Below are positions 2,454 to 63,176 of a stretch of DNA of 64,000 nucleotides, piece by piece. Origin of the DNA: Escherichia phage vB-Eco-KMB40. Location: sequence record OR539220.1. The stretch is one strand, 5' to 3'. Both the position numbers and the translations under genes were made by a program. The first letter of the stretch is position 1. Each line of letters begins with the position of its first letter. The notes beneath the pieces are model-generated. The model worked only from the letters and a program-made list of their open reading frames with translations, was not told where the DNA came from and did no database searches.

Positions 2454-4270
2454 TACTGACTCATCCATTCTTTACGAAGGTCAGCATTATCTCCCATGAG
2501 CATTTCAAAAAGCTCTTTCCAGTTCTCAGGAAGTTTAACAACATCATATACTGGATTTTGAATCATCTCACGATATTCAGATTTTTCCAAAGAGCCAAGT
2601 CCCTTAATATAACGGATGCTATGTTTAGGTAGAGCATCTTTGGCACTCTCATATTCAGCGACTGTATAAAACCATTCTTGTTTTTTACCGACCTGAGCGA
2701 TGATTACAGGAGTTTTGACAAAACGAATTCGTCCTTGCTCAAACAATTCTGGCCAATTACTAAAAAATCCGAGCAAAGAAGGATAAATGCTTCCTAGACC
2801 ATCATGGTCAGCATCAGTCATAATAGCAATATTATGATAATTCAAGTTTTCAGCTTTTTCACCGAGAACTAATCCAGTGATTGCGCAAATATCAAATAGT
2901 TCTTTGTTTTTAAGCATATCTGCATAAGACATACCCCAACTGTTGAGAACTTTACCGCGCAATGGATAACCACCGTGAAGTTCTTTATCGCGAACATCAA
3001 TAAGATATCCGATAGCAGAATCACCCTCAGTCAAGAAAAGAGTAGTGTCAGCATCTTTACCACAAAGATTCGCTTTGATATGTTTATGAACCTTAGCTTT
3101 AGAAGCCTTTTTAGCTGCTTTAGTTTCTGCTGCTTTTTCTGCTGCCAATTTACGAGCCAAAGCAGCTTCAATAATTGGCATCAAAATTGCTTCATTATTT
3201 AGAATAGCACGTGAAATCTTTTTAGCATCAAGCTGAATATGACTACGGATTTCACCAAATGGAGAAGTCAAACGCTCTTTAGTTTGAGAATCAAATCGCA
3301 TGTTTTTCATATCACGAACAAACATAACGATAGTCAAACATTCTTTGACACGCGCTTTAGTTACATCAATTTTGAACTTACGTTTGATTTGTGGAATAAG
3401 GTCTTCACAAATATCATCCATAACACAGTCAATGTGATGGCCACCATTCTTAGTATGAATGTTATTGACGTATGTTAATTGACGAAATCCATCCGGTGAA
3501 CGACCAACCGCAATAGAACAATTTTCTTGTTCTTGAACAATAGCATGTTCATCATACTGTCGTGCATATTTCTTAAAATTGCCCTGAACCTTTTTACCAT
3601 TAAAGGTAAATTGAATATCAGGATAAACAACAGCAAGTGTCTGGAGACGATCTAATGTAATGTCAAGATAAACCTGAGATAGCTCATTAGTTTCAAATGA
3701 CATAAAATCAGGAATGAAAGTAACGCGAGTTCCTTTCCATTTTCCAGGAATATCTTCCCATGATTTATTTTCCATGCCATTTGAACAACGAACTACAATA
3801 TTATTTTGACCATCACCAGTTTCACCGACAAACATCACAGAAAAAATGTTTGTCAAACTAGAACCAACACCATTCATACCGCCGGTGACGCGTTCTTTAT
3901 CATCACCGAAGTTACCACCTGCTTTTGGAATAGTCCATGCAGCAACAGGACCAGGAATTTCTTCACCGGTAGGTGTTTTAACCATCGCTTGCGGAATACC
4001 ACGACCGTTATCTTCAACTGTTACTTGATTGTTTTTAATAGTAACATTAATTTTATTTGCGAATTTAAACTTAGTACGAATACCTTCATCTACTGAGTTA
4101 TCGATAATTTCATCAATAAGCTTAACAAGACCAGGTACATACTGAACACTTTCCCATTTACCAAACAGAAAGCGCTCATGCATTTCATTAGCAGAAGAGC
4201 CAATGTACATGCCACTACGCTTTTTGATATGTTCAATATCGCTCAGAATTTTAATTTCATTCTTAATCAT
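2453..4270 (-). CDS. 39: DNA topoisomerase II large subunit, unsplit (605 aa)
   Basis: GyrB-like ATPase motifs, N-terminus MIKNEIKILSDIEHIKKRSGMYIGS as T4 gp39; continuous ORF covers the part encoded separately by gene 60 in T4; track start at 4273 is GTG, ATG at 4270. Confidence 0.9.
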   Translation of the reverse strand: MIKNEIKILSDIEHIKKRSGMYIGSSANEMHERFLFGKWESVQYVPGLVKLIDEIIDNSVDEGIRTKFKFANKINVTIKNNQVTVEDNGRGIPQAMVKTPTGEEIPGPVAAWTIPKAGGNFGDDKERVTGGMNGVGSSLTNIFSVMFVGETGDGQNNIVVRCSNGMENKSWEDIPGKWKGTRVTFIPDFMSFETNELSQVYLDITLDRLQTLAVVYPDIQFTFNGKKVQGNFKKYARQYDEHAIVQEQENCSIAVGRSPDGFRQLTYVNNIHTKNGGHHIDCVMDDICEDLIPQIKRKFKIDVTKARVKECLTIVMFVRDMKNMRFDSQTKERLTSPFGEIRSHIQLDAKKISRAILNNEAILMPIIEAALARKLAAEKAAETKAAKKASKAKVHKHIKANLCGKDADTTLFLTEGDSAIGYLIDVRDKELHGGYPLRGKVLNSWGMSYADMLKNKELFDICAITGLVLGEKAENLNYHNIAIMTDADHDGLGSIYPSLLGFFSNWPELFEQGRIRFVKTPVIIAQVGKKQEWFYTVAEYESAKDALPKHSIRYIKGLGSLEKSEYREMIQNPVYDVVKLPENWKELFEMLMGDNADLRKEWMSQ

Positions 4271-15570: not shown

Positions 15571-16595
15571 ATCTTAGCATATTTAGATAACCGCATTTTA
15601 GCCATCAACCCCTGGGCAATATTATTTTTCATATATTCCATAATTTGTTCAGGGGTTGCACCTTCCTTTCTAATCATATCATTAACATCTTTTGATTTCC
15701 AGGGAGATTTATCCCAAAACATAACCCTTTCTCCTGCATCAACTAATTTAGTCATTCGCTTAATAGTGTCAGGATGACGAGGTTCATTATCTAAAACCCA
15801 CACACGTCTATCTTTAAATGGAACAACTTCTAGGTCTAATTGACCACCCGTAATAGCTATACCATTTTCAATAAAAAGTGAATCTATAGGTCCTTCTAGA
15901 ACATATACATCGCCATCTTTAACTCGTTCGACTCCATATATTTTTGTTGCCTCAGGATAAGCCTTAATGGTGATATATTTTTGAGGAGCATCTTTCTTTA
16001 ATGCACGTCCTTGAAAAGACTCAGCTTTTCCATTAGCATTATAAATTGGAATAACAAGACGAGGCTCAGAAATTTCCTTTTTGTATGTTCCCGGTGCTAT
16101 GCTATTAACTAATTTAGGCCATTCGGTTGTAAACCAAAGATATTTCCATTTATCCTTTGGAATACAACGAGCTTTTACATATTTTATAATTGGATGGTCT
16201 TCCGCCAGTTTATCTAATCTAACGCATGACGGAAGAGATTTAATTATTTTCTTCTCAGGTTGTTTAGGAAGTTCTTTAGGTTTTTCTACTGGACGACTTT
16301 TACCTTTTTCTTTTCTTATTTCAAAGATATACTCACGATATAAATCAGGTTCAAACTCCTTTAAATATATTCCGATTGGCGCATGATAGTTACAGTTATA
16401 ACAATGAATATTTCCTTCATTATTATCACCATAATACCATCCACGAGCTTTATTCTGGTCGGTTTTTGAATCTCCACAAACAGGACATCTAAACCGCAAT
16501 TTAAAAGTTGAACTATTATTTACTTGTGTGAATTTAGGTAAATGAGCTAATGCACGGTATGCAAACTCATTATCAATCCAAGGTATTGATGACAT
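15567..16595 (-). CDS. 61: DNA primase (342 aa)
   Basis: zinc ribbon CPVCGDS...CYNC, 342 aa as T4 gp61. Confidence 0.9.
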   Translation of the reverse strand: MSSIPWIDNEFAYRALAHLPKFTQVNNSSTFKLRFRCPVCGDSKTDQNKARGWYYGDNNEGNIHCYNCNYHAPIGIYLKEFEPDLYREYIFEIRKEKGKSRPVEKPKELPKQPEKKIIKSLPSCVRLDKLAEDHPIIKYVKARCIPKDKWKYLWFTTEWPKLVNSIAPGTYKKEISEPRLVIPIYNANGKAESFQGRALKKDAPQKYITIKAYPEATKIYGVERVKDGDVYVLEGPIDSLFIENGIAITGGQLDLEVVPFKDRRVWVLDNEPRHPDTIKRMTKLVDAGERVMFWDKSPWKSKDVNDMIRKEGATPEQIMEYMKNNIAQGLMAKMRLSKYAKI

Positions 16596-16761
16596 TTTTA
16601 CTCTTCTTTTTCTTTAGATTCCTCTTTTTCTTTTTAGGAATCTGTTCAGGGCCTTTATTTACTACAGCGCCTGACGTTGTTCCAGTAGAGATATTTTCAG
16701 GATTACCACCTGAATCTCCAGCGACCATATCTTCTTTGATAAATTCTTTATATGTTTTCAT
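16573..16761 (-). CDS. 61.1-position protein with capsid-targeting-like N-terminus (62 aa)
   Basis: N-terminus MKTYKEFIKE resembles internal-protein targeting sequence MKTYQEFIAE; SD GAGG. Confidence 0.5.
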   Translation of the reverse strand: MKTYKEFIKEDMVAGDSGGNPENISTGTTSGAVVNKGPEQIPKKKKRNLKKKKSKNVINTLD

Positions 16762-60220: not shown

Positions 60221-60547
60221 TCAATTAGAAAATAAATTTATCCAAGATTGTTCTTTAATTAAAAATGGCTCAGAATCATATGCCATTAAACTTTGGGTGA
60301 TTAGTCCTTTAAAAGGTCCATCAATAAATTCCATGGTAAAATATGGAATTTTATTCATTAACTGTGCGTTAGGAGCAGTGCACAAAACTCTGCATCCTTT
60401 GAATACGCCTTTTTGTAATTTGTATTGCTTGGGATAAAATTCGCTTAAAATGTTGTTATTTGCCAAAATTTCAAAATGATTTACCAATTTATTTTTAATA
60501 GTTTTTGGCGAAAAATAGAGATATTCGAAAAGCTGTGTGTCTGTCAT
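60221..60547 (-). CDS. hypothetical protein (108 aa)
   Basis: track ORF trimmed to ATG at 60547 (TAATG overlap with upstream stop). Confidence 0.4.
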
Positions 60548-61137
60548 TATTGCATTCCGATTACGAAAAACTGTGGACGAGTAATACCACCAATGCAACA
60601 TTTACTATTACAGCAGTAGTGTACAGTGTCAATATGGACGCTATAAATCTTATCCATATCAGGAGATTTGACAGGCTCATCAATTATATACAAAATTCGC
60701 GAAAGCGATAAACCTCTGAACTTGCTTCCTTTATTACCAATAAAACTGCGTACAGAATCAGTAAATAAACGAAAACGTATATCATCATTAGAATAACGCG
60801 AAAATTCCTTTTTAATGTTATTTGCAGAAATTTTAGCGTAAGCTGAAGTATTAGAAAGAACAATAACTGTTCCGCCATCATACAGCCAATTAGCAGCAAA
60901 GTTAGTCACAGCAATTGATTTACCGGATTGACGTCCACCATCTATACGAAGTGTGCAGTACTGTTTGAGCACATCTTCCATTGGTGGAAGATAATCATTC
61001 TTACAAAGTTCTTCTACTCTAGCATCAGAATGGTGTGTAAAAGCATTCATCAGGGATAGATAAGGTCCGGTTAAAAATGTTCTCATGTTATTTCTCTTAA
61101 GGTTTTTGGGCCATTCCGTGGCGCATGAATTGTCCAT
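60547..61137 (-). CDS. P-loop protein (196 aa; alternative ATG at 61086)
   Basis: Walker A-like DGGRQSGKS. Confidence 0.4.
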   Translation of the reverse strand: MDNSCATEWPKNLKRNNMRTFLTGPYLSLMNAFTHHSDARVEELCKNDYLPPMEDVLKQYCTLRIDGGRQSGKSIAVTNFAANWLYDGGTVIVLSNTSAYAKISANNIKKEFSRYSNDDIRFRLFTDSVRSFIGNKGSKFRGLSLSRILYIIDEPVKSPDMDKIYSVHIDTVHYCCNSKCCIGGITRPQFFVIGMQ

Positions 61138-61230
61138 TTCTGTATTTACCCATTACCGCACTCAGGCTCGACCTTATTACAGGTTGGCGGGAATCCCTCA
61201 TAGAATCATGAGGTCCAGGCTGTTCCCATA

Positions 61231-61704
61231 TTATTTGAACGATTTAACGTACTGAATAGAACCTTTACTATTTACAAAGGCAATTTTACCATTTTTATTA
61301 TACATGGTAGCAGTACGTTGATAACCATAAGTTTGTTTACCAGATTGATAACCAACTAATGCGAAATTATCTTCGCCCATTTTATTCTGTTTAGCGCGAA
61401 TGCGTTCATGACCATGTGCCATAAGAACCTTAGCATCACCGGTTGCAATGGATCGACGAGTTTTTTCATCTTCAACTGTATTAACAAAGTCGTCAAATGA
61501 ATCAAATTTAGCATGTGATTTATTATACAGTTTTCCATCTACTGCATAATTATATCCCTGTACATCCATCTCAACTTCTGTACCATCATCCAATACAGCA
61601 GTGATTTTTTGACCTTTTTTAAATTTCAAAAGATCAGTAAAAGATTCAGCAATAATTTGAGAATTAATAGCTGCTTCAGTGATAAATTCTTGATATGTTT
61701 TCAT
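61231..61704 (-). CDS. internal-protein-like protein with capsid targeting sequence (157 aa)
   Basis: N-terminus MKTYQEFITEA matches T4 IP targeting sequence MKTYQEFIAEA; adjacent to denV. Confidence 0.6.
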   Translation of the reverse strand: MKTYQEFITEAAINSQIIAESFTDLLKFKKGQKITAVLDDGTEVEMDVQGYNYAVDGKLYNKSHAKFDSFDDFVNTVEDEKTRRSIATGDAKVLMAHGHERIRAKQNKMGEDNFALVGYQSGKQTYGYQRTATMYNKNGKIAFVNSKGSIQYVKSFK

Positions 61705-61713
61705 ATGTTTCCT

Positions 61714-62130
61714 TTAAATGTAAATATTTTTACCGTAATACTTATACCAATGTGGTTTCATTAAAATTTTTTCATCAAGTCGTTGTTGACTCAATTTAAT
61801 AGCTGATTTGCATGGATTATAATCATTTTTCCATTCTACTGGAATATCGCTGATGTCAGGAACTTCAGTATCTTTTATACTGAACCCTCGTTTTAAGCAT
61901 TCCGTTATAATGTCTAATTGACGCTTTCGCAAAAATTCTAACTTATCGTAAAAGAACGTAACATGACCAGAACCTAAAATAAACTCGGAAGATATTTTAA
62001 AATCTTTAACGCGCTTACCGTTTGCCACATGCTTACGAACTATACCAAAAACACGTGGCAATTCACGATATTCTGCAATTAAATGCTGATCAGTAAGTTC
62101 AGATACTAAAGTCAAATTAATACGAGTCAT
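61714..62130 (-). CDS. denV: endonuclease V, pyrimidine-dimer DNA glycosylase (138 aa)
   Basis: [12 protein letters not shown]...[10 protein letters not shown]...WYKYYGK; 138 aa as T4 DenV, visibly diverged. Confidence 0.85.
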
Positions 62131-62155
62131 TTTATCCCTCCAAGTAACTGTGAAT

Positions 62156-62185
62156 ATACTATCACAATTCTAGGAGAAAGTAAAC
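62156..62185 (-). promoter_or_regulatory. early sigma70-type promoter for denV
   Basis: GTTTAC at 62180-62185, TAGTAT at 62156-62161, SD GGAGGG. Confidence 0.5.
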
Positions 62186-62189
62186 AACT

Positions 62190-62720
<531 letters not shown>

Positions 62721-63176
62721 TTAAAAGAGGCTGTTCATTATTCGGTAAAGTGAAGGACCCATCACATATTGCCACTGAGTACGAGGAATAAGAGCAAAAG
62801 CATCCATCTCTGGAATCATAACGCCATCTTTATTTTCAAAATAAGACTCGCAATGGCAATTTCTGAACATCTCATGCTCTACTGGAATCGTATAATAAAA
62901 TAACTGTAAGTCTTTATTACTAGAATATTTAAATACACCTAGGTCTTCTAGAAGGTCTGGATTATAATTGCTAAAACCAGTCTCTTCTAAACATTCTCTT
63001 CGTGCTGCATCTAATGCGCTTAAATCGAAATTTTCTACACGGCCCTTTGGAATATCCCAGCGATGTGCCATCATTCCAGGCTTACGAGAACCAGTAACCC
63101 GACCCATAAATAAATCTTTATCTTCTGTCATAAAGATAATACCAGCTGATAGTGTTTTCATTTTAATTTCCTGCAT
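62721..63176 (-). CDS. nudE: Nudix hydrolase (151 aa)
   Basis: Nudix box GRVENFDLSALDAARRECLEETG; position next to e. Confidence 0.8.
   Translation of the reverse strand: MQEIKMKTLSAGIIFMTEDKDLFMGRVTGSRKPGMMAHRWDIPKGRVENFDLSALDAARRECLEETGFSNYNPDLLEDLGVFKYSSNKDLQLFYYTIPVEHEMFRNCHCESYFENKDGVMIPEMDAFALIPRTQWQYVMGPSLYRIMNSLF

Follow-up and report, generated by a model that had tools for sequence, protein, structure and literature searches.

The gene adjoining denV in Escherichia phage vB-Eco-KMB40 is ip4 of T2-like phages and probably encodes a packaged internal protein

Which protein is encoded beside denV in Escherichia phage vB-Eco-KMB40, is it loaded into the phage head, and what might it do in the infected cell? 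We addressed these questions in a 64,000-nucleotide stretch of the phage DNA (OR539220.1), referred to here as the window. A preliminary description, made from the sequence alone, had reported a 157-residue product beginning MKTYQEFITEA, had recognised in it the capsid targeting sequence of T4 internal proteins and had proposed an injected anti-defence effector. The open reading frame listing places a coding sequence with an ATG start and a TAA stop at exactly 61231-61704, and both the coordinates and the sequence given earlier were right; the product has the N-terminus MKTYQEFITEAAINSQ and a precursor mass of 17.8 kDa (157 aa). The strand, which had not been specified, is the minus strand. 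On this strand the order of genes is nudE (62721-63176), e (62190-62684), denV (61714-62130), the gene under study and a homologue of vs.8. The gene adjoins denV and lies outside the e-denV interval, as described; it had been called upstream of denV, whereas it is transcriptionally downstream of it.

The product matched the Pfam family DUF7412 over its full length (E=5.7e-96), with 319.4 bits against a cut-off of 27 and residues 1-157 covered in a 158-position model. It likewise matched PHROG 3155, labelled 'internal virion protein', over its full length (E=6e-102), while the matches to other ip-family PHROGs were weak and N-terminal only (mostly residues 1-14 to 1-30). The protein is identical to those of T2, RB18 and RB33, and its only significant match among predicted viral structures was UniProt Q38388, 'Ip4 [Enterobacteria phage K3]' (99% identity). 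When the 2.4-kb region was searched, 732 phage records matched, the best being phage teqhad (98.4%), in which the RefSeq label reads 'internal virion protein' with the note 'putative Ip4 internal head protein'. A tblastn search with the protein returned 470 phage records, 290 of them at 99% identity or more, including T2, RB18, RB33 and ime09 (labelled 'Ip4: internal virion protein'), and about 160 at 60-80% identity in Klebsiella, Salmonella and Serratia phages. Ip4 of K3, T2, RB18, RB33 and ime09 is 99-100% identical in amino acid sequence to that of the window over all 157 residues, and the tag and the 3' flank are shared as well. The family is small and confined to phages: a set of 5.8 billion proteins contained 14 of its clusters (90% identity), and one of 1.84 billion contained seven representatives. 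The gene is the already named ip4 of T2-like phages, widely annotated and not new; this long-standing name had been missed in the preliminary description. A literature search under the names Ip4 or DUF7412 found no paper, and we traced the name to UniProt and GenBank labels and to Silas et al. 2025, who cite Repoila et al. 1994 for at least ten Ips in T4 relatives (PMC12373910). The T2 and window alleles differ by nine synonymous and no non-synonymous codons, which indicates that ip4 is under strong purifying selection.

We then considered whether the N-terminus is a capsid targeting sequence, using T4 IPII and IPIII from NC_000866 for the alignment that the preliminary description had suggested. 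The tag (codons 1-10, MKTYQEFITE; 61675-61704, minus strand) ends in an I-T-E protease motif and is identical to the MKTYQEFIAE of IPII and IPIII at nine of its ten positions (residues 1-8 and 10), in agreement with the match first noticed. Nothing is conserved past residue 10; the similarity is confined to the tag, and the mature part is, as had been thought, unlike IPII or IPIII. The T4 prohead protease gp21 recognises L/I-X-E, and in IPIII mutants residues 4 and 7 govern head targeting while residues 8 and 10 govern processing (PMC9026906). All four of these experimentally critical residues are kept in Ip4: Y4 and F7 are the same as in IPIII, and I8-T9-E10, followed by the small residue A11, conforms to the L/I-X-E rule, the sole change (A9T) falling at its free X position. 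E10 is near-invariant across the family, and by T4 biology Ip4 would be cleaved after this residue, leaving a protein of 16.5 kDa with a pI of 9.1. When the entire 64 kb were translated in six frames, the tag pattern M[KN][TSQ][YF]x[ED]F[ILM]xE turned up only twice, in ip4 and in a homologue of gp61.1, and the tag match of Ip4 is therefore not a chance one.

The second tag-like open reading frame lies far from the ip loci (16573-16761, minus strand), between the primase gene 61 and 61.2. It encodes 62 residues starting MKTYKEFIKEDMVAGDSGG, with a Lys-rich tail, and belongs to PHROG 1823, which has a function-less label. T4 gp61.1 has the N-terminus MKTFKEFIKED, and the homologue in the window keeps Y/F4, F7, I8 and E10; judging by this N-terminus, it might be a packaged peptide too.

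The tag of Ip4 is followed by a linker (residues 11-20, AAINSQIIAE; 61645-61674, minus strand), beyond which the globular domain is predicted to begin. This linker ends in a second protease-type motif, I18-A19-E20 followed by S21. E20 hardly varies within the family. All close homologues have I, L or M at the second position ahead of this Glu, and 'LNES' takes the place of the motif in two distant members, P0016 and P0017. A second conserved protease-type site at E20 distinguishes Ip4 from T4 IPII and IPIII. Ip4 is probably also cut after Glu20, in which case the mature N-terminus may be S21 (15.5 kDa).

Indirect support for packaging came from an orthologue. Gp127 of the Klebsiella phage ValerieMcCarty03 (159 aa) is encoded directly after the lysozyme gene and is 70% identical to Ip4 of the window. 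It was detected in CsCl-purified virions of two phages, with 66 peptide-spectrum matches from each, a count in the range of those of several baseplate and fibre proteins (PMC13119998). This orthologue is abundant in the purified particles. Further evidence came from three distant homologues (P0015, P0016 and P0017; 34-36% identity), which start with MNFEQFLNES or MNFKDFLNES and not with MKTYQEF. On the contig that encodes P0015 (ERR14707364_71623, 1-2794), four adjacent open reading frames start with MNFEQFLNES, MNFQRFLNEA, MSFKKYLDEQ and MKFSEFLNES, and this group looks like an ip cluster with a different targeting sequence. The contig is a metagenomic one from a divergent T4-like phage, and one of its four tagged frames is the DUF7412 homologue. 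Since the distant homologues and these neighbours share the variant tag, the mature domain is conserved while the tag follows that of the local phage, as expected of a true targeting signal.

To place ip4 in its surroundings, we compared the locus among relatives. Within its transcription unit, ip4 is directly preceded by denV (61714-62130, minus strand), which encodes endonuclease V according to Pfam Pyr_excise, PHROG 1183 and the annotation of relatives. Directly before the ip4 start codon stands a 27-nt ip leader, AAAAATATTTACATTTAAAGGAAACAT, which contains the ribosome-binding site (61705-61731, minus strand); it is identical to the T4 ipII leader and overlaps the last five denV codons and the stop (overlap 61714-61731). 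Because of this overlap, denV ends KNIYI* in the window versus KAIYA* in T4; the C-terminus of a repair enzyme has been rewritten by the insertion of a cassette. Between e and denV (62131-62189, minus strand) lies a cassette of the promoter-early stem-loop (PeSL) type, with a GTTTAC box and a hairpin of -18.3 kcal/mol, homologous to the T4 e-ipIII spacer. PeSL cassettes have been proposed to mediate shuffling in T4-type genomes (PMC4122927, PMC2839356). The 3' flank of the ip4 cassette (61087-61230, minus strand) is homologous to the stretch behind the denV stop of T4, where the annotation makes it the 5' end of vs.8. Past its stop, ip4 is followed by GGGAACAGCCTGGACCTCATGATTCT, as T4 denV is, and T2 shares this flank. 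In the window, the flank is out of frame with the main vs.8 frame. We also considered an RNA element or a mobile-element relic in this G+C-richer spacer (61087-61230) and rejected it, with no Rfam match and folding like that of shuffled sequence (z = -0.38).

The vs.8 gene itself differs between these phages. T4 vs.8 is annotated with 219 residues and starts MRDSRQPVIRSS, while vs.8 of the window lies at 60547-61137 (minus strand). Its 5' part is a separate 34-aa open reading frame (61097-61201) in a different frame from the conserved body, whose start, MRTFLTG, is at 61086, and the gene is split or shortened in T2 and teqhad too. This suggests that the 5' extension of T4 vs.8 may be non-coding, or that vs.8 may be decaying.

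At least five layouts of the ip hot spot at e and denV were found. T4 has e-ipIII-ipII-denV; T2 has e-ip4, without denV; the window and teqhad have e-denV-ip4; teqsoen has e-denV-ipX-ip4; and Jiaodavirus has e-ip4-ipII-like, followed by a gene labelled IpIII and, further on, denV. Bas37 has e-denV-vs.8, with no ip gene at the locus, and the HIDEN-SEQ data on that phage accordingly offer no ip4 phenotype. The 5' neighbour of ip4 therefore varies, being e in T2, denV in the window and an extra 105-aa ip gene in teqsoen-type phages. This extra gene of teqsoen (positions 2813-3130 of locus L002) bears the tag, starts MKTYQEFIAESAAGQRVEGG, belongs to PHROG 3966 and lies between denV and ip4, as it does in many close relatives. 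The window is without exactly this cassette: the 100 nt upstream and the first 23 nt of the tag are identical, after which the sequence is that of ip4. The identity up to the tag and the switch to ip4 imply that the two layouts differ by a crossover within the repeat formed by the ribosome-binding site and tag. Next to denV without the extra gene, ip4 was found in 8 of the 30 best-matching records, and the position that had seemed striking in the preliminary description is thus a common variant. The gene lies in the e/denV locus, one of two hypervariable ip loci, behind the shared leader, as ip genes do, and in T2 it occupies the slot of T4 ipIII. In the T2 record (PV648364.1, 19058-20113), ip4 directly follows e, with no denV between them or nearby, and no other ip gene is annotated at the e locus of T2. 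T2 is classically more UV-sensitive than T4, which fits this arrangement.

How would such a gene be expressed late, when heads are assembled? An exact T4 late promoter box, TATAAATA, lies upstream of e (62711-62718, minus strand) and pairs in the alignment with the first of two late boxes that T4 has there; exact copies of this box are strongly depleted in the 64 kb (3 found versus 10.5 expected). The second of the tandem T4 boxes reads TATAAACA in the window (62698-62705, minus strand) and is not exact. Neither T4 ipIII, T4 ipII nor ip4 of the window has an exact late box of its own. When one mismatch was allowed, the search of the window gave 220 matches versus 223 expected, which is at chance level, and a scan for sigma-70 promoters and terminators gave background only. 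Late synthesis of ip4 most likely starts at the e late promoter and reads through e and denV. Early synthesis would start from the cassette before denV, whose promoter activity we infer from homology.

We next turned to the mature part of the protein. Mature Ip4 is basic, with a pI of 9.1-9.3 (about 15.5-16.5 kDa) versus about 9.6 for mature IPII and IPIII. An AlphaFold model, for which the input alignment included distant family members, had a pLDDT of 83.8 and a pTM of 0.78; residues 21-157 were mostly above 90 and residues 1-20 low. The predicted fold consists of beta-hairpins and three helices and weakly resembles nucleic-acid-binding small barrels (Sm/Hfq, bL19 and Tudor). There was no significant sequence match in the PDB; a designed Kelch repeat protein retrieved in that search (E=6e-4) was noise, its score being summed from six sub-threshold repeats. 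Searches of NCBIfam and PADLOC gave sub-threshold noise only. Across Pfam, PDB, NCBIfam, PADLOC and structure comparison, no enzymatic motif, known inhibitor fold or relative of known fold was found for Ip4. Polar residues of surface type (N61, K62, N107, K108, Q120, Y128 and T131) are strongly conserved across homologues that are 35% identical.

The reading of Ip4 as an internal protein is well supported because the tag, the family membership, the locus, the basic charge and the orthologue in purified virions all agree with it. That part of the preliminary description stands, while the injected anti-defence effector proposed there is an argument by analogy. The analogy draws on proteins with the same kind of tag. 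Each of the T4 proteins Ip1, Ip2 and Ip3 blocks a single, specific type IV restriction enzyme of the GmrSD type (Silas et al. 2025, PMC12373910), and IPIII does not need its tag to work in the cytoplasm (Srikant et al.). A fourth protein with such a tag, Bas37_0260, is an inhibitor of McrBC (HIDEN-SEQ preprint). All four internal proteins with an assigned function thus inhibit type IV restriction, Ip1-Ip3 acting on GmrSD variants and Bas37_0260 on McrBC. Ip4 resembles T4 IPII and IPIII, the injected inhibitors of GmrSD-ECOR21 and GmrSD-ECOR17, in tag, in leader and ribosome-binding site, in its place at the hot spot beside e and denV, and in having a small basic mature protein. It differs from them in that the mature parts share no detectable similarity and in that they have GmrSD targets whereas none was found for Ip4 in the GmrSD panel. 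The tag also likens Ip4 to T4 IPI*, which inhibits GmrSD-CT596, and to Bas37_0260, both of which are injected with the DNA and act before phage gene expression. The Dar proteins of phage P1 follow the same principle, being loaded into the head and co-injected to protect the incoming DNA, but they come from an unrelated phage lineage, are loaded without a T4-type tag and counter type I restriction (PMC12810830).

The anti-defence idea is the standing hypothesis of the field rather than a new lead, and one that has been partly tested, with a negative result. In the single published assay to cover ip4, where ip4-10 were set against the GmrSD panel, no reproducible inhibition or interaction was seen (Silas et al. 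2025, Supplementary Fig. 9, PMC12373910), and T2 remains sensitive to restriction by GmrSD-ECOR21 and GmrSD-ECOR17 (Silas et al. 2025, PMC12373910). Since the panel was negative and T2 carries an identical Ip4, the target of Ip4 is not among the tested GmrSD enzymes. Beyond the tag, we found no homology to inhibitors of the Ip1, Ip2 or Ip3 type, either in the alignment to IPII and IPIII or in the weak N-terminal PHROG matches. Overall, the best explanation is that Ip4 is packaged and injected and is most probably an inhibitor of a type IV restriction nuclease variant, a reading to which we assign a probability of roughly 0.6.

Our proposed sequence of events is as follows. The late Ip4 destined for packaging would be translated mainly from read-through transcripts begun before e. 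From T4 biology, the tag would attach the precursor to the prohead's scaffolding core, where a gp21-type protease would remove it after Glu10 and probably cut after Glu20 as well. The basic mature protein, like T4 IPI-III, would remain among the packed DNA and be injected along with it. By analogy, injected Ip4 would act at once in the cytoplasm, before phage genes are expressed, most probably by inhibiting, in a stoichiometric manner, some variant of a modification-dependent (type IV) restriction nuclease.

A first alternative is that Ip4, though packaged and processed, lacks a specific host target and serves as a basic, DNA-associated filler of the head (in charge neutralisation, packing or ejection) that is interchangeable with IPII and IPIII. 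The basic pI, the weak likeness to nucleic-acid-binding barrels, the T2 gene sitting in the ipIII slot and the lack of a GmrSD target in the panel are all consistent with such a role, as are the contacts that lysines of T4 internal proteins make with DNA phosphates and the DNA binding of IPs at low salt. However, IPII and IPIII were themselves long taken for fillers and proved to be specific GmrSD inhibitors, and Bas37 is viable without any ip gene at the locus, so a filler is dispensable. The conserved polar residues of surface type in 35%-identical homologues also suggest a specific interaction, and we consider a pure filler unlikely.

Another alternative keeps the injection but changes the target: Ip4 could act on another immediate-early defence or in host take-over, possibly by binding RNA or DNA through its beta-barrel. 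This would agree with the negative GmrSD panel, and the orthologues in Klebsiella, Salmonella and Serratia phages (61-71% identity) imply a target common across Enterobacteriaceae; the case of Alt, moreover, shows that other roles are possible for head proteins that T4 injects. Against it, the solved proteins of the ip loci act on type IV restriction enzymes in four cases out of four, and neither an enzymatic motif nor a relative of known fold was found, which makes a target other than type IV restriction distinctly improbable. That the tag is a recombination relic on an unpackaged, cytoplasmic early protein would fit the position of ip4, which follows denV (an early gene) and a promoter cassette of early type, and the tag-like N-terminus of the gp61.1 homologue outside the ip loci, but it is very hard to reconcile with the abundance of the orthologue in purified virions and with a tag and Glu10 motif conserved family-wide and co-varying with the phage's own tag in distant members.

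Returning to Ip4 as a packaged and injected protein, we can suggest, tentatively, a version that accommodates the panel result: Ip4 might neutralise a first-line defence outside the tested GmrSD groups (another modification-dependent nuclease, for example), or might bind nucleic acid via a small beta-barrel, with a target common to Escherichia, Klebsiella, Salmonella and Serratia. If this were true, Ip4 would be usable as bait to discover that defence system; there is a modest residual chance that it points to an undiscovered defence. The gene itself carries little weight as a finding, being named, covered by Pfam and PHROG families, and present in hundreds of sequenced phages including T2. 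It is nevertheless among the most widespread and best conserved ip cassettes, one without an assigned target versus the four injected ip proteins that have one. The locus in which it lies illustrates clearly how T-even phages, by sharing leader and tag sequences, can exchange, insert or lose cassettes for injected proteins.
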